Positions 1-41,597 of a stretch of DNA of 41,597 nt are shown in pieces. The translations under genes and the position numbers were made by a program. Below the pieces are notes generated by a model, which was not told the DNA's origin, searched no databases, and worked only from the letters and a program-made list of their open reading frames with translations. Numbering within the stretch: position 1 is the first letter of the stretch; every line of letters begins with the position of its first letter. Source of the DNA: a virus (Duplodnaviria > Heunggongvirae > Uroviricota > Caudoviricetes); the IMG/VR virus record IMGVR_UViG_2703718828_000001, positions 1 through 41,597 of that record, one strand, 5' to 3'.

Positions 1-500
1 AAGTTGGAGTCATTACCTGCCTTTTCTTTAAATTGCTTCACCCCCTGGCAAGGGTTCATCTTCACTTTCCCTCTTTCATATGCCCATCTGAATACACGAG
101 AAATAAAAGCCTTCTCCCGGTTTGCCTGGACTCTGCTTTTTACGCCTCGCTTGTCCATATACTTACGGATATGCTCAGGTTTAATGTTGTCGGGTTTCAT
201 TTTCCCAAACACAACGTTAACTTTATTTCCGTACTTTCTGTAATCCTTCCGAGTCTCAGTAGCCAACTCGTGAAAATCTCCAGAATTAAAAAACTCCTCA
301 CACAACGCGTTAAAGTTGGTGCCAACCTTAATGTCGTTTATGAAGTTTTCATAAGCCGCCCACACCTGCGACTTAGTCAAGTCAGCGTTACACAGTCGTA
401 TTGTCCTGCCATCCGGTGTACGAAACTCATAGGCAGATTTACCCCGGCGAACGCGGGGCGGCATCCAGTTATCTTCTGGGTTTTTACGAACTCTTGGCAT
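1..500 (-). CDS. int: Tyrosine integrase, N-terminal part only (gene continues left of the window)
   Basis: Reverse translation from ATG at 500 gives MPRVRKNPEDNWMPPRVRRGKSAYEFRTPDG..., resembling lambda-type Int arm-binding N-terminus and SAM-like core-binding segment (RKYMDKRG...NREKAFISRVFRWAYERG); start overlaps stop of upstream gene. Confidence 0.75.
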   Translation of the reverse strand, partial: MPRVRKNPEDNWMPPRVRRGKSAYEFRTPDGRTIRLCNADLTKSQVWAAYENFINDIKVGTNFNALCEEFFNSGDFHELATETRKDYRKYGNKVNVVFGKMKPDNIKPEHIRKYMDKRGVKSRVQANREKAFISRVFRWAYERGKVKMNPCQGVKQFKEKAGNDSN

Positions 501-730
501 CAACACATATCCTTGAAGTTAGGCTCTTCTTCTTCACGATTATTCACTACCAACTTTAAGCCTACAGGGTTTGAAACATGATCCCATGTAGTGCCTGGTC
601 GTCCATCTTTACGAGGAACGTAGAACACCCCGCTCTCCTTAAGTGCCTTGCACTGGAGAGAAGGGCGGCGATAACCAGTCAGCTGATATAGATCATCCGG
701 AGTAAGAAAGCGTTGGCTTTGTTCGCTCAT
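500..730 (-). CDS. DUF4224-like small protein, probable excisionase/recombination directionality factor
   Basis: 76 aa, motif FLTPDDLYQLTGYRRPSLQ; immediately upstream of int and translationally coupled to it. Confidence 0.6.
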   Translation of the reverse strand: MSEQSQRFLTPDDLYQLTGYRRPSLQCKALKESGVFYVPRKDGRPGTTWDHVSNPVGLKLVVNNREEEEPNFKDMC

Positions 731-5564: not shown

Positions 5565-5641
<77 letters not shown>

Positions 5642-7431: not shown

Positions 7432-7977
7432 ATGGTAGACAGCATAAACACAGCGATTCGCCTTATGTGCAAGGCACACAAACACGGTCGTGTAGGCCTG
7501 GCTGCTGATCTTGGCATGACCATCGATCAATTTCACAACCATCTGTACCAAAAATGCGGCAGTCGTTTTTTTACGGTAGTCGAACTTGAACAGATGCAAT
7601 CCATTTCCGGCACGTCTTATCTGGCTGAGTATTTCGCTAAGTGCTGCGGAAAAATGCTGGTGGACATTCCTGTACCTGAGAGCATCGACAATGTCGATTT
7701 GTATGAAATCGATATGAAAGCGACGGTCGCAGCTGGCGAACTGGCTTCAGCAAAAGTTGCAGCTATTGCTGATGGTGTAATCGATATGAAAGAACGCCAG
7801 ACACTTTCCGATTTATTCAACAAGAAGTTGCGTCACCAGATTCATGGGTTTCTGGGGTTCATGGCGCTGTATGGGGTGAGCGTATCGGATCAGGCAGTGG
7901 ATGTTTTTATTTCTACCGGCAGAAAAGGTGACGCCCCGAGTGTGCAGCTCGGAGCGTCTGGCGCGCCGGTTCTTTAA
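7432..7977 (+). CDS. CII-like regulatory protein (CP76-type, tentative)
   Basis: 181 aa, directly downstream of cro with AAAGGGA RBS; assignment mainly by position. Confidence 0.45.
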   Translation: MVDSINTAIRLMCKAHKHGRVGLAADLGMTIDQFHNHLYQKCGSRFFTVVELEQMQSISGTSYLAEYFAKCCGKMLVDIPVPESIDNVDLYEIDMKATVAAGELASAKVAAIADGVIDMKERQTLSDLFNKKLRHQIHGFLGFMALYGVSVSDQAVDVFISTGRKGDAPSVQLGASGAPVL

Positions 7978-7993
7978 GTGGAGAAACTAACGC

Positions 7994-8332
7994 ATGAACA
8001 GTTTAAACCGATTCAGGCCAGCTAAGCAATTCAGATGCCTGCCGCTGAAGGGGAAAAGCTCCCCGTTCGGCTATGTGGAAAGAGTACACAGCGCTGGTGG
8101 TGCCAACAACTACCAGTCGTGTTCAGAAATGGTAGCGGCATTTGCTCTGATGAACGAGAAGGGGCGTGAGGAATGGCTGAAGTTGACCGGAGGTTCAGAG
8201 ACCACAGAGGAATCCCTGTGCGGGTCATCCGATGGGAGCCAGCCACACGCCGCGTTATATACCTTCGCGAAGGGTACGATCATGAGTGCTTCAGCCCTCT
8301 TGAGCAATTCCAGCGCAAATTTACAGAGTTAA
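7994..8332 (+). CDS. Hypothetical protein (uncertain; alternative frame 8173..8385 also open)
   Basis: 112-aa ORF with GGAG RBS ending just before the O-like gene. Confidence 0.3.
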   Translation: MNSLNRFRPAKQFRCLPLKGKSSPFGYVERVHSAGGANNYQSCSEMVAAFALMNEKGREEWLKLTGGSETTEESLCGSSDGSQPHAALYTFAKGTIMSASALLSNSSANLQS

Positions 8333-8341
8333 AGGACTGCC

Positions 8342-9268
8342 ATGAGCCTGTTAATGCCATCCCGGCCGATAGTGATAAACCCTGACCTTGCATACAGCAT
8401 TGGCCTGAACGAGGCAATTGCGTTGCAGCAGGTGAACTACTGGCTGAAAGAAACAAACTCCGGTCTGGAGCGTGACGGCGTGCGCTGGATATATAACACC
8501 AACGAGCAGTGGCTGGAGCAGTTCCCGTTCTGGTCAGAGTCTACCCTGAAGCGCACCTTCACCCGCCTGAAGACTCTCGGCGTGCTCAAAATTGAGCAGC
8601 TGAATAAGTCTCAGCGCGACATGACGAACTACTACACGATCAACTACGAAAGCGAGCTTTTAGATGAGGTCAAAGTGACCAAATCGAAGAGTTCAAAATG
8701 CACTCGTCCATCAGGTCAAAATGAACCGATGGAAGAGGTCAAGGTGGAACACTCCATCGGGTCAAAACGAACCGCTGTCATCAGGTCAAATTGCACTGAT
8801 GTTCTTACAGAGAATACAACAGAGATTACTACAGAGAATAAAACCCCTTCTTGTCCGGTTGCGTCGCAACCAGACCGTGAAGTGTTGATCACTGATCAGG
8901 CCAAATCGGTGTTATCTCACCTGAACCAGGTCACGAACTCACGGTTCCAGGTATCAACCACATCCCTGCAGAATATCCGCGCCCGTATCGGCGAGGGGTT
9001 CACCGTGGAAGAGCTGCAGCTGGTGGTCGATTACTGCAACGCCAAATGGGCTGATGATCTGAAAATGTCCGATTACCTTCGCCCCCAGACGCTTTTCCAG
9101 CCGACCAAGTTCCCTGGCTACCTGAAGTCTGCTAACAACTGGTCAAAAGCTGGTAAGCCTGCACGGGTTAACGGTGAGTGGGCGAGGGAAGAGGGCGTAT
9201 TCAAATCGAGTTTCCAGAACACCAACTACGGCAAGATCCCCGCTGGTTTCAGAGGAGCTAACTCATGA
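8342..9268 (+). CDS. Replication initiator, O-like (replisome-organiser N-terminus, conserved phage C-terminus)
   Basis: N-terminal IVINPDLAYSIGLNEAIALQQVNYWL; C-terminal MSDYLRPQTLFQPTKFPGYL; iterons lie inside the gene as in lambda O. Confidence 0.65.
   Translation: MSLLMPSRPIVINPDLAYSIGLNEAIALQQVNYWLKETNSGLERDGVRWIYNTNEQWLEQFPFWSESTLKRTFTRLKTLGVLKIEQLNKSQRDMTNYYTINYESELLDEVKVTKSKSSKCTRPSGQNEPMEEVKVEHSIGSKRTAVIRSNCTDVLTENTTEITTENKTPSCPVASQPDREVLITDQAKSVLSHLNQVTNSRFQVSTTSLQNIRARIGEGFTVEELQLVVDYCNAKWADDLKMSDYLRPQTLFQPTKFPGYLKSANNWSKAGKPARVNGEWAREEGVFKSSFQNTNYGKIPAGFRGANS
8668..8790 (+). repeat. Putative replication origin: six direct iterons at ~23-bp spacing, followed by an AT-rich tract
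   Basis: GGTCAAA-type repeats at 8668, 8691 (GTTCAAA), 8714, 8737 (GGTCAAG), 8760 and 8784; then ACAGAGA repeats at 8805-8845. Confidence 0.65.
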
Positions 9269-38678: not shown

Positions 38679-38918
38679 ATGCCCCGCAAATCAGACCTTC
38701 GCGCCGCTTTCGTTGCCGCCGTGCACAAAAACCCGAAAGGGTATCAGTGCCTGCGCACCGCTGACTTTATCAGGGAGCTACGCGCCAGAAACTGGCATTT
38801 CACAGAAACTGACGCCAATGAATGGATAGAACGATACCAGGCTGGCTTTGTAGATAAAACACCCGACGACAGCCAGAACCGGCTCTGGATAATGCGCAAT
38901 ATGGGGTACATACGATAG
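38679..38918 (+). CDS. Hypothetical small protein, first gene of the putative SOS-regulated pair
   Basis: 80 aa from ATG at 38679 with GGAGTG RBS. Confidence 0.5.
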   Translation: MPRKSDLRAAFVAAVHKNPKGYQCLRTADFIRELRARNWHFTETDANEWIERYQAGFVDKTPDDSQNRLWIMRNMGYIR

Positions 38919-39235
38919 TGGGCTTCGTCTCGCCGGCGGGCGACTATATCGAGCGCAGGTTAAATCCCGAGGATATGCTCACGACAGATCAGAGCCGTAT
39001 CGTCGAAACGGCTACCGGCTATGCCGTGATTGAGCCGGTGACAAAACTTTCGCAGGGGCAGGTGCTGCTAATTCTGTGTGGTGGGTATACCCAGTTTGCG
39101 AAACTACAGGGCCGATCGTTAATCACTGATGATGGCGAAGCGTTAGAAGGTGAGGCCATGGAAGAGGCAGAAGTAATGGGCAGGGTGACGTATTTCATCA
39201 ATCGCACTATACGGGGTGATGACTGTCCGGTTTAA
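38918..39235 (+). CDS. UmuD'-like protein, apparently pre-cleaved and lacking the catalytic Ser
   Basis: Starts at GTG with GFVSPAGDYIERRL, matching the UmuD segment just after its Cys24-Gly25 cleavage site (GFPSPAADYVEQRI); SGDSM position replaced. Confidence 0.5.
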   Translation: MGFVSPAGDYIERRLNPEDMLTTDQSRIVETATGYAVIEPVTKLSQGQVLLILCGGYTQFAKLQGRSLITDDGEALEGEAMEEAEVMGRVTYFINRTIRGDDCPV

Positions 39236-39370: not shown

Positions 39371-39427
39371 GATTTAAAATCCCTCGGCGTTCGCGCTGTG
39401 CGGGTTCAAGTCCCGCTCCGGGTACCA
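39371..39427 (+). other. 3' fragment of tRNA-Leu(UAA): prophage attR core
   Basis: GATTTAAAATCCCTCGGCGTTCGCGCTGTGCGGGTTCAAGTCCCGCTCCGGGTACCA equals the leuZ-type tRNA from anticodon loop to CCA; upstream sequence is not tRNA. Confidence 0.75.
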
Positions 39428-39469
39428 TGGGAAACATCAGAATAATCAAAGCAATAAGCAGTGTCGTGA

Positions 39470-39492
39470 AACCACCTTCGGGTGGTTTTTTT
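39470..39492 (+). terminator. Rho-independent terminator (likely the original tRNA terminator)
   Basis: aaccacc-ttcg-ggtggtt followed by T-tract. Confidence 0.6.
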
Positions 39493-39667
39493 GTGCATGC
39501 AATTCACGCCCTGTGCATATCCTGTGCTCACGGGGTGCAATGAGCTGCAATCTACAGCCTGGCAATGCCGAATTGAACGTGTCGCCTCCAGCATAGAGAA
39601 CCAGGTTGCTTTGCCTGTTTTCCGGTACTCTTCCGGGAAGGGGCCCTGCTGAGCAAGCTGTAATGCT

Positions 39668-40408
39668 CTAGCCACCCTGAGTACAAAGTTGCTTAATTCG
39701 TGCAATCACCTCATCTCTGTACTTCTGGTGTCCGCGCATAGCCCTTGGATGGGCAATTCTGAAACAGATTGCATTACCTGTTTTGAACTCCCACAGCTTC
39801 TCCGGAATGACTGAAGAAGTCTCATAGCCGCCCAGCTCAGTAAGCACCTGTTTTATGATGTAGTCTGTTCTCCGGGCTCCGGATGCAAAGATGATGAAAT
39901 CAGGCTCAAGGTGTTTAATTTGTACCGCCAGCAGCTTCAGCGAGGCTAATATGACTTCCTGCACTTCATTTTGAGGGCGATTGAGAGGGGTCAGTCCGTC
40001 GTAATCCCACGCCAGTAGATTGGCATACACGATTGCCTGGGGAAGAATATTAAGCTCCCGGGCCAGCCTGAAATGATATTGCGTGAAGCGGCTACGTGAT
40101 TTGAGGTTGGTGGTGCCATAATTTTGTACCGGAAGATGTTTCCTGTAACGATCTACAGCTTCTTCAACCACCTGCCCGATGGTGACGTCAGGTATAAGTC
40201 CCAACACCCGTGATATCGTATTCTTACCATTCAGCGTATTCCAGCCAGCGGTTTCACGTCCAACCAGCATGATTTTTACCGGTGAGTGCCAGTATTCTTC
40301 AAAGGGTACGGGTAAAAATACGCCTGAGTATTTATCCTCATTCAGGTTAAATGACTGGGCGTTAACTTCCTGCAATATCCGTTTGTACGCGTCTAATAGC
40401 TTTTCCAT
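39668..40408 (-). CDS. Hypothetical protein at the island junction; uracil-DNA-glycosylase-like motifs (tentative)
   Basis: 246 aa; KIMLVGRETAGW resembles UDG motif A and a C-terminal HPRA resembles motif B. Confidence 0.4.
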   Translation of the reverse strand: MEKLLDAYKRILQEVNAQSFNLNEDKYSGVFLPVPFEEYWHSPVKIMLVGRETAGWNTLNGKNTISRVLGLIPDVTIGQVVEEAVDRYRKHLPVQNYGTTNLKSRSRFTQYHFRLARELNILPQAIVYANLLAWDYDGLTPLNRPQNEVQEVILASLKLLAVQIKHLEPDFIIFASGARRTDYIIKQVLTELGGYETSSVIPEKLWEFKTGNAICFRIAHPRAMRGHQKYRDEVIARIKQLCTQGG

Positions 40409-40489
40409 TCTTCAATCCTGCCCCGTAATAAAAACACCTTCAGATATATATTATTTTCATGATATCAATCAGATACATGAGGATAAATA

Positions 40490-41597
40490 TGCAAAAATCC
40501 TTCCGATTCACCAATTCATCCATCAAAGCCCTTCCGGCAAACACAGATACCAGATCTACAGAGCTAGAGGTATCTGATACCGAAGTTATTGGCCTCAAAT
40601 GTCTCTCAGGTCGAACGGGTAACAAACGTTTCCTCCTGCGCTACACATTCCACGGTACCAAAAAAAGTATCAGTATTGGCAGATTCCCTGAAATTGATGT
40701 GGGGACAGCTCGCCAGATAGCTCGCCGTCATAAGGAGGCGATTGCACTTGGAAATGACCCCAAGGCAGAGCGCGATAATTATCGTGCGATGCCAACGCTT
40801 AGTGAGTTTTTTCACCAGACCTATGTTCCGTTCATCAAGCGCCATAAAAAGTCCTGGGATAAGGATGTTCAGCGTTTCACGCAATACATTGAACCTCGTC
40901 TGGGAAAGATACGTTACTGCGATCTCAGGGCCAGAGAGATACAACAGGTGCTGTTTGACATGCTGGAGGGGCGTATTCACGGGCAGCAATATGCGCCGTC
41001 TACCTGTAACAGAGCCCTTGCTATTCTGAAAACGATGGGGCGTTATGCGTTGCGACAGGATGTGCTGGAAAAGAATGAAGCCGATAAGATCCCTTTACTG
41101 AAAGAGAATAATCAGCGGACGCGCTTTTTTGATGCTGATGAGATCAGGCGCATTCTTGACGCTGCTACCCAATATCCCAACAAAGCTGCCGGGGGATTGA
41201 TAGCCATGTTGTTGTTAACCGGTACACGCAAATCAGAAATGCTTAATGTCAGGCATGAACATATCGACCGGGCCAATCGTACTCTGTTTATTCCTTATAC
41301 AAAAAATGGTCGCAGTCGGACGGTATATCTAAGCGATGCCGCATTATCGATTATTGATGCTATCCCACGAGTTGGCAGTAATCCGTATCTGTTCGCCATT
41401 AAGGATAATGGAAAACCGATATCGGAACCCCGATGGGCATATGAAAAAATACTGGCACAGTGCGGTATAGACAAGAATGAAGTCTGTTTTCACACCACAC
41501 GTCATTCTGTTGCCTCTTTACTGGTTTCGAGTGGTCAATTCAGCCTGTATGACGTTAAAGCCCAACTGGCGCATGCCAGGGAAGGTGCGAATAAGCA
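40490..41597 (+). CDS. P4-type tyrosine integrase, N-terminal ~369 codons (gene runs off the window)
   Basis: Manual translation from ATG at 40490 (GAGGA RBS): MQKSFRFTNSSIKALP...LLLTGTRKSEMLNVRHEHID...FHTTRHSVASLL with R/H-x-x-R catalytic signatures; not in the supplied ORF track because no stop lies within the window. Confidence 0.7.

Follow-up and report, generated by a model that had tools for sequence, protein, structure and literature searches.

A displaced leuZ fragment between a lambdoid prophage and an integrative island in Escherichia coli

Results

A lambdoid prophage with an interrupted integrase gene

The window (the whole 41,597-nt stretch analysed here, IMG/VR record IMGVR_UViG_2703718828_000001) contains a lambdoid prophage (positions 18–39370) whose integration module is mEp390-like, a 57-nt fragment of a leucine tRNA gene and the first genes of an integrative island, and it is bounded on both sides by termini of insertion sequences. 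The prophage was delimited by its Pfam content, its identity to sibling prophages in other genomes and its similarity to phage mEp390. It is lambdoid by gene content: an int-xis pair lies at one end, and further genes provide cI/Cro-type immunity, a tail fibre and a tail module of lambda type (tape measure and gpM/L/K/J homologues). Identical proteins in sibling loci matched the Pfam families P22_Cro, HTH_3 combined with Peptidase_S24, Tape_meas_lam_C, Phage_min_tail, Phage_tail_L and Phage-tail_3. The last gene of the prophage is UmuD-like (38918–39235) and 46% identical to mEp390 gp26. The prophage unit is about 40.8 kb long in the siblings, to which the window prophage is 99.9–99.98% identical (about 10.7 kb compared at each end), and its internal spacing matches theirs within 1 bp.

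The left end of the window is an IS1 insertion in the phage int gene and probably reflects a contig break at this repeat. Positions 1–17 correspond without mismatch to the 17-nt terminus of IS1 (K-12 IS1A; the window has GGTAATGACTCCAACTT in reverse complement), and sibling prophages run on with integrase sequence where the window has IS1. What remains of the phage integrase is its N-terminal 161 codons (18–500, minus strand), recognized by translation and by the Pfam domain Phage_int_M and 94% identical in amino acid sequence to mEp390 Int. The intact gene comprises 336 codons in sibling lysogens, and an intact 336-aa homologue carries PF00589; with IS1 cutting after codon 161, the open reading frame in the window lacks the whole catalytic domain and the prophage is not an intact one. 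The integrase start is overlapped by an excisionase-like gene (500–730, minus strand), which encodes a 76-aa DUF4224 protein (PF13986) and whose mEp390 counterpart is annotated as excisionase. The first-pass annotation had the integrase facing an intact tRNA just outside the window. The gene does point to leuZ, but it is IS1 and not the tRNA that lies just outside; judging from IS1-free sibling lysogens, the intact leuZ would be found about 1.37–1.46 kb further to the left.

Enterobacteria phage mEp390 (NC_019721), a lambdoid phage of the subfamily Hendrixvirinae, shares the Int N-terminus and the Xis type with the window prophage, and in both a UmuD-like gene adjoins the att site. The annotated 121-bp attP of mEp390 contains the leuZ 3′ half plus trailer, with the same boundary between arm and core as in the window. 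The two differ in the T-stem marker and in the trailer variant, and an alignment of the two covers only about 31% of the first 8 kb, at approximately 80% identity. These sequence comparisons indicate that the window prophage is a different phage from mEp390 that shares its integration module.

Four assemblies, among them GCA_015316765.1, contain this prophage without the island. On the integrase side, these lysogens have an intact leuZ (called by ARAGORN in the four siblings) with a compensatory T-stem pair and a trailer that are both of phage type; on the other side follow the identical arm, the 57-nt fragment, the native trailer and yecA. The prophage is absent from 5426 complete E. coli genomes, in which its right end and integrase region have distant relatives only. 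A related integrase adjoins an intact leuZ in strain C3728.

A displaced leuZ fragment shared by two elements

Positions 39371–39427 (plus strand) are identical, 57/57 nt, to the 3′ end of K-12 leuZ (b1909, tRNA-Leu UAA), exactly as had been read from the sequence at first pass. The fragment opens at the anticodon loop and spans from the "GA" of the anticodon stem to CCA. No tRNA was called here by ARAGORN, or by Rfam at the gathering score; under a permissive threshold the tRNA model yielded 16.9 bits against a cut-off of 29, a low score that is expected because this is a fragment. The empty site in K-12 consists of leuZ, its 3′ETS and then yecA, without an insert. In the window, the phage arm ending in ataacacgcat abuts the fragment in the same way as in the annotated attP of mEp390 and in the attR of sibling lysogens, where the fragment is also present, while identity to E. 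coli chromosomes detected by BLAST begins precisely at 39371 and runs unbroken into the island. The 57 nt form the core block of both the prophage attR and the island attL, and the fragment is the right end of the prophage and the left end of a leuZ island at once. For annotation, this places the prophage boundary exactly between 39370 and 39371, with the island beginning at 39371.

The crossover is confined to positions 39371–39402 by T-stem markers in the sibling lysogens, in which the pair at attL is of phage type (A33/T43 of the fragment) and the one at attR of host type (G/C). By analogy with known anticodon-loop att sites (bioRxiv 10.1101/2020.11.02.365908), strand exchange would have taken place at the anticodon loop TTTAAAA (39373–39379, plus strand).

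Phages of the mEp390 group carry the leuZ 3′ half in their attP, and the fragment might be read as the phage's own attP copy, or as a decayed tRNA pseudogene, without any island junction. We regard this as scarcely credible, the least probable of the readings considered here: the fragment and trailer are of host or island type and 100% identical to those of island-bearing strains, the phage-type T-stem pair and the phage-type trailer of sibling attL and mEp390 are both missing, and the chromosomal identity continues without interruption into the island.

The trailer after the fragment

Directly 3′ of the fragment lies a 65-nt trailer (39428–39492, plus strand), an island-borne variant of 3′ETS-leuZ recognized by homology to K-12 b4759. 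It ends in an intrinsic terminator, a hairpin (39469–39488, plus strand) followed by a T-run, as indicated by RNA folding and homology. The terminator claimed earlier at this place is real as a hairpin and T-run, but it belongs to the island's copy of the 3′ETS-leuZ sRNA sponge. The window trailer resembles K-12 3′ETS-leuZ in its position after leuZ, in the terminator and in the 12-nt sRNA-pairing core AAGCAGTGTCGT (39456–39467, plus strand), and differs in being element-borne and in its 5′ part. It is identical to the trailer at the island attL in strain 81EVA, where a native-type trailer is found at the far end of the island. No Rfam family matched the trailer at the gathering score, and a simple terminator scanner missed the hairpin, though fold and homology show it. 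In computed duplexes, AAGCAGUGUCGUG is complementary to RyhB CACGACAUUGCU and AAGCAGUG to the 5′ end of RybB in 5/5 trailer variants; whole-RNA duplex energies are inflated, as they ignore intramolecular structure, and the contiguous core pairing alone was taken as evidence. The prophage splits the window trailer from the tRNA operon promoter, and no convincing promoter was predicted upstream of it.

The leuZ island

The 246-aa gene noted earlier at the junction is indeed present (39668–40408, minus strand). Its product has no sequence match in Pfam, NCBIfam, PADLOC or the PDB. The AlphaFold model (pLDDT 89.5) was used in a fold search, in which 43 of 43 PDB matches at E ≤ 1e-3 belong to the uracil-DNA-glycosylase (UDG) superfamily, and on this model the protein is predicted to have a divergent UDG-superfamily fold. 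In E. coli the gene is always linked to the island integrase; its context in Stutzerimonas shows that it need not be partnered with an integrase.

The island integrase reads rightward and is represented by codons 1–363 of 399 (40489–41579, plus strand), identified by translation, Pfam and comparison with its 81EVA homologue. The intact homologue combines Arm-DNA-bind_3 (PF13356, E 2.8e-14) with Phage_integrase (PF00589, E 8.3e-24). In the window the catalytic site is incomplete: the sequence ends after ...LAHA (codon 363), and the tyrosine of the STERY motif lies beyond the junction with an IS5-type element, whose terminus occupies 41580–41597 (17/18 match to the K-12 IS5A end GGAAGGTGCGAATAAGCG). 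Every intact integrase homologue departs from the window exactly at this junction. The window ends at IS termini on both sides, probably because contigs break at IS copies. The first-pass annotation described a P4-type integrase reading rightward. The direction, from 40489, and the domain layout bear this out, and like satellite phage P4, which uses leuX, it combines Arm-DNA-bind_3 with a tyrosine-recombinase catalytic domain next to a leucine tRNA; however, it shares just 23% identity with P4 Int (357 aa compared, E 1e-8), and whereas P4 has an annotated 20-bp attP core, the island att starts at the anticodon loop and so lacks a P4-like core. Its best matches in the phage database reach at most 28% identity.

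Of 5426 complete E. coli genomes, 356 have the island junction without the phage, in the order intact leuZ, window-type trailer, 246-aa gene, integrase; leuZ is intact beside the island integrase in 81EVA and other carriers. The island repeat begins at the anticodon loop and comprises 56 nt of the tRNA and about 70 nt of trailer, and the far repeat in 81EVA consists of these 56 nt of leuZ and the native trailer, beside yecA. The 81EVA element (NZ_CP138397) is a defence island of about 37 kb that matches the window with 100% identity in the trailer, the UDG-fold gene and, up to position 41579, the integrase; it carries type I R-M, MZA, GmrSD-like and other nucleases, while the window stops before its own cargo and has IS5 within the integrase. 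Tandem arrays of same-family islands at leuZ occur in strain 2EC1. leuZ has also been reported as an integrative-element site in STEC O145:H28 (PMC7067040), an element whose likeness to the window island is the common site alone.

Discussion

Probable tandem occupation of leuZ

These results lead us to conclude that two independent integrative elements very probably occupy leuZ of one E. coli chromosome in tandem. The prophage and the island are independent because each occurs alone at leuZ in other genomes, the island without the phage in the 356 genomes described above and the prophage without the island in the sibling lysogens, which bears out the earlier proposal of a tandem island. The shared target is leuZ, the last gene of the glyW-cysT-leuZ tRNA operon, and both elements would use tyrosine-recombinase exchange at the anticodon loop. 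Both att sites carry a substitute for the 3′ 56–57 nt of the tRNA together with a 3′ETS-leuZ homologue of about 65 nt with its terminator, so that integration would restore a functional leuZ with its trailer next to the integrase and push the earlier 3′ half to the far end of the incoming element. The fragment at 39371–39427 is such a displaced half, with the right end of the prophage of about 40.8 kb and its mEp390-type Int/Xis on its left, and the island-type trailer, the UDG-fold gene and the DUF4102-type integrase on its right.

The complete locus may then read pgsA-glyW-cysT-leuZ (with the phage 3′ half), phage trailer, a moron, int::IS1 and the prophage; then the 57-nt fragment with the island trailer, the UDG-like gene and int::IS5; and lastly the island cargo, a 56-nt fragment with the native trailer, and yecA. 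The parts of this map outside the window, including attL, what remains of each integrase gene and the island's far end, are drawn from other genomes, and deletions or inversions may have arisen there through IS1 or IS5.

The phage–island junction was not found in the 5426 complete E. coli genomes. The four neighbourhoods displayed for the 24 longest contigs with the prophage right end likewise lacked the pair of elements, and exact-protein matches of xis, the UmuD-like gene and the 246-aa gene led to siblings and island carriers, with no contig containing both. A junction of this kind could also arise as an assembly artefact, if the repeated att sequence had led to a misjoin of the phage end with the island end: IS termini bound the window, as is typical of a short-read contig, and the att block would occur about three times per genome. 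The exact repeat from the phage arm to the first island-specific base measures about 64 nt (the 57-nt fragment and "tgggaaa"), which is shorter than normal reads or k-mers, and the three trailer copies differ in sequence, making a misjoin highly improbable.

The first-pass annotation proposed that the phage inserted into an already occupied tRNA-Leu gene. The tandem position at one tRNA-Leu gene stands, and the order of arrival it implies is plausible but unprovable from the structure. Ordering the insertions by sequence markers was abandoned, as both orders predict an identical junction. In the opposite order, the phage would have lysogenised an empty leuZ and the island would later have entered the phage attR. 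The observed island-type fragment and trailer beside the phage arm are predicted equally well, attR retains the anticodon loop and the 3′ stem arm, and both the island-free lysogens and the tandem islands of strain 2EC1 are consistent with such a history. On the other hand, attR is without the 5′ anticodon-stem arm, which as a rule borders the crossover, and would be a poorer target, and the frequencies of the two elements (356 of 5426 genomes for the island and 0 of 5426 for the phage) favour a resident island and a recent phage. We consider the phage-first order rather unlikely and infer that the rare phage came to a leuZ already held by the widespread island.

Tandem occupation of a tRNA hot spot is a well-known, ordinary arrangement, and tandem islands and prophages at tRNA genes have been catalogued by Islander (PMC4383910). 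In Klebsiella, anticodon-loop att sites have been described at the last tRNA of an operon ("leu2A"; bioRxiv 10.1101/2020.11.02.365908). The Islander and K. pneumoniae tDNA elements resemble those described here in the displaced 3′ fragment at the far end and, going by the sibling lysogens and 81EVA, in the integrase by a regenerated tRNA, as well as in the presence of several elements per tDNA, in the use of the last tRNA of an operon and in att sites extending from the anticodon loop to CCA. Here, by contrast, the shared block also takes in a regulatory trailer, reaching about 65 nt beyond CCA, and both integrases are inactivated by insertion sequences. With both integrase genes broken, neither element should excise on its own, and PCR for excision circles would probably be negative; IS1 and IS5 appear to have locked both elements in place. 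The tandem finding is itself of small import, its practical value being correct annotation.

A possible role of the sponge RNA

3′ETS-leuZ is described as an sRNA sponge (Lalaouna et al. 2015, cited in PMC6191717 and PMC13501541). Both elements carry the trailer although their integrases, an mEp390-type Int in the phage and a DUF4102-type Int in the island, are unrelated. This leads us to speculate that elements using leuZ might be selected to bring a working 3′ETS-leuZ sponge, beyond the tRNA 3′ half and a terminator; on the sequence comparisons we hold this as a tentative idea, with the odds somewhat against it. If it were true, every leuZ integration would replace the host RyhB/RybB sponge RNA with the allele of the element and strand the old copy. 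Tandem arrays would gather orphan copies, three of which are expected here, and sponge dosage could change if these were transcribed. Such replacement would tie mobile-element traffic to a small-RNA noise-buffering circuit; among related papers, represented mostly by their titles, none was found to link leuZ integration to sponge replacement.

The trailers vary freely in their first 12 nt or so and in the loop and stem of the terminator, with the RyhB/RybB-pairing core AAGCAGTGTCGT invariant. Among 44 unique element-borne trailers from viral contigs, 34 contain this core exactly. The remaining 10 belong to different trailer families associated with other variants of the tRNA acceptor stem, and these divergent families probably come from other host genera.

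Tandem organization of the locus

The observation made in the first-pass annotation from the sequence alone is confirmed, and its interpretation is supported with corrections: the locus is an ordinary tandem array of a prophage and an island at a known tRNA hot spot, immobilized by IS1 and IS5. The fragment at 39371–39427 (GATTTAAAATCCCTCGGCGTTCGCGCTGTGCGGGTTCAAGTCCCGCTCCGGGTACCA), proposed to be the 3' 57 nt of a tRNA-Leu(UAA), matches K-12 leuZ at 57 of 57 nucleotides, beginning two bases ahead of the anticodon loop and extending to the leuZ 3' end. It is a fragment and not a gene, as ARAGORN called no tRNA there (the sole call in the whole window is a phage tRNA-Arg), Rfam gave no match at the gathering score, and the tRNA model scored 16.9 bits at a permissive threshold compared with a cut-off of 29. 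Identity to E. coli chromosomes in BLAST comparisons sets in exactly at 39371.

To the left lies a lambdoid prophage. Its integrase is encoded on the minus strand, and the N-terminus (500 down to 18) shares 94% identity with its counterpart in phage mEp390, whose attP, annotated at 121 bp in its record, reads ...ataacacgcgt/GATTTAAAATCCC...CCA in the window orientation, followed by a trailer. The window junction (...ataacacgcat/GATTTAAAATCCC) has the same arm/core boundary. Searches for identical proteins located this prophage in further assemblies. When ~10.7 kb was compared at each end, these sibling prophages proved 99.9–99.98% identical to the window, and their internal length equals that of the window within 1 bp (unit ~40.8 kb). 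On the integrase side they are flanked by pgsA-glyW-cysT and an intact leuZ (called by ARAGORN), with a compensatory T-stem pair (cgAgttcaagtcTcg) in its 3' half and a trailer of phage type; on the other side follow an identical arm, the 57-nt host-type fragment, a native (K-12-type) trailer and yecA, with no island. The phage tRNA-Arg(TCT) is located in the early-left region (5565–5641, minus strand; Rfam 65.6 bits). Outside the window, the sibling prophages encode between attL and int a 147-aa protein (L008, 11380–11823) whose N-terminus resembles a signal peptide and which has no family match; the ORF is likely a moron gene in the same orientation as the tRNA operon.

Among 5426 complete E. 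coli genomes, 356 carry the right-hand segment 39371–41579 after an intact leuZ, at ~99–100% identity. Strain 81EVA has pgsA-glyW-cysT-leuZ, then a 246-aa gene, a 399-aa integrase, ~37 kb of cargo (including a type I R-M system, the MZA system, a GmrSD-like protein and other nucleases) and yecA. The direct repeat at the far end of the island consists of 56 nt of leuZ, starting at the anticodon loop, and a K-12-type trailer. K-12 represents the empty site, with leuZ, trailer and yecA but no insert. These comparisons identify the element as an integrative island of leuZ, where integrative elements have already been reported in STEC (PMC7067040). The island integrase, reading rightward from 40489 as proposed, has Arm-DNA-bind_3 and Phage_integrase domains; the label "P4-type" fits this architecture but must be qualified, as identity to P4 Int is only 23% and identity to any phage-database integrase is at most 28%. 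Arrays of same-family islands do occur at leuZ: strain 2EC1 contains two islands in tandem with the same right-arm sequence (L004, 8002 and 13092), the upstream one bearing Hhe and DUF262 defence genes.

Each element is found without the other, the island at an intact leuZ and the prophage in the siblings, which shows them to be independent elements at one common site, present in the window in tandem as proposed. The two integrases have no detectable relationship. An assembly misjoin of phage and island ends is unlikely: to pass from phage-specific to island-specific bases an assembler would have had to cross an exact repeat of only ~64 nt, and the three trailer alleles can be told apart by sequence. 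The distribution of markers bounds the crossover to nt 1–32 of the fragment, and the anticodon-loop att sites known elsewhere (bioRxiv 10.1101/2020.11.02.365908) lead us to expect it within the anticodon loop. Phage-borne leuZ 3' halves show compensatory T-stem changes, C:G to T:A or G:C to A:T (L008 12100–12186; L006 4640–4696; viral loci L027–L146), so that lysogens would express a chimeric, still base-paired tRNA-Leu, and these markers tell the phage-derived side of a leuZ junction.

The claim that the phage entered an already occupied tRNA-Leu agrees with the arrangement but, with respect to order, is an inference that cannot be proved, since entry of the island into the phage attR predicts the same final sequence. 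The island is common, the phage is present in 0 of the 5426 complete genomes, and the phage attR has only one of the two anticodon-stem arms. We therefore consider it improbable that the phage came first, and strongly favour prior integration of the island, followed by insertion of the phage into the regenerated leuZ.

Inactivation of both integrase genes

Both integrase genes are insertionally inactivated. Positions 1–17 match an IS1 terminus exactly, and the IS1-free siblings run on with integrase sequence at this point; the phage integrase is thus cut after codon 161 of 336. The intact leuZ was expected just outside the window, but IS1 is there instead, and in the siblings the remainder of int and the 147-aa signal-peptide gene come first, with leuZ 1.37–1.46 kb past the window start. 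At the other end, 41580–41597 matches an IS5 terminus at 17 of 18 positions where intact island integrases read on (...LAHA/SIQSTERYAKL), so that the island integrase is cut after codon 363, ahead of the catalytic tyrosine. Autonomous excision is consequently not expected of either element. The window itself probably represents a short-read contig that ends where IS copies interrupted the assembly. The island integrase has been inactivated by IS5 recurrently, as a second IS5 position at about nt 845 is found in AH21, Z142-1 and GCA_041330695.1 (L018, L022 and L024, around 7880–9075), which have lost differing amounts of island cargo.

The 246-aa gene

The junction gene of 246 aa was confirmed as an ORF (39668–40408, minus strand) and is island cargo. 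Sequence-family searches with the protein gave no match; homologues with 50–80% identity are spread over Gammaproteobacteria, labelled UDG-like in some sources. The AlphaFold model (pLDDT 89.5) matches only structures of the uracil-DNA-glycosylase superfamily (43 with E ≤ 1e-3, TM 0.4–0.58, identity ≤16%), and the product is predicted to adopt this fold. By analogy with the cargo of related islands, a role in defence is possible. An obligatory partnership with an integrase was ruled out.

Trailers carried by leuZ-integrating elements

In K-12 the 67 nt after leuZ are annotated as the sRNA 3'ETS-leuZ, described as an RNA sponge of RyhB and RybB (Lalaouna et al. 2015, as cited in PMC6191717 and PMC13501541). 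The terminator noted after the fragment is indeed a hairpin with a T-run, but it belongs to a 65-nt 3'ETS-leuZ variant (39428–39492). This variant (tgggaaaCatCagaataa--tc...) is that of the island attL, while the native variant stands at the island far end, indicating that the island brings its own trailer. The phage of the window, mEp390 and the C3728 prophage also carry their own, as does every leuZ-integrating element examined (window 39428–39492; L008 11990–12099; L006 4574–4640; L005 3347–3415). In these trailers the RyhB/RybB-complementary core AAGCAGTGTCGT is invariant, whereas flanks and terminator loop vary.

A scan of viral contigs found the leuZ 3' half in more than 120. Among 44 unique trailers from viral contigs with an integrase within 3 kb, 34 contain the exact 12-mer, while variation, with compensatory changes, is found in the first ~12 nt past CCA and in the stem and loop of the terminator. 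The remaining 10 represent separate trailer families, have different acceptor-stem variants and probably come from hosts of other genera. All variants tested show complementarity of the 12-mer to RyhB nt ~36–47 and to the 5' seed of RybB, and the 12-mer also follows leuZ in most Enterobacteriaceae species representatives. Selection for sponge function could have kept the core; so could a role in RNA processing or in Hfq binding, a need for it in recombination, or gene conversion with host copies. We found no paper linking leuZ mobile elements to the sponge trailer, going mostly by the titles of the closest candidates, and regard the conserved core as a modest lead. The island-type trailer (tgggaaaCATCAgaataatc...) is identical to that after the intact leuZ of Buttiauxella noackiae (L159) and Pluralibacter gergoviae (L203), a hint of movement between genera, either of the whole island or of its att segment.
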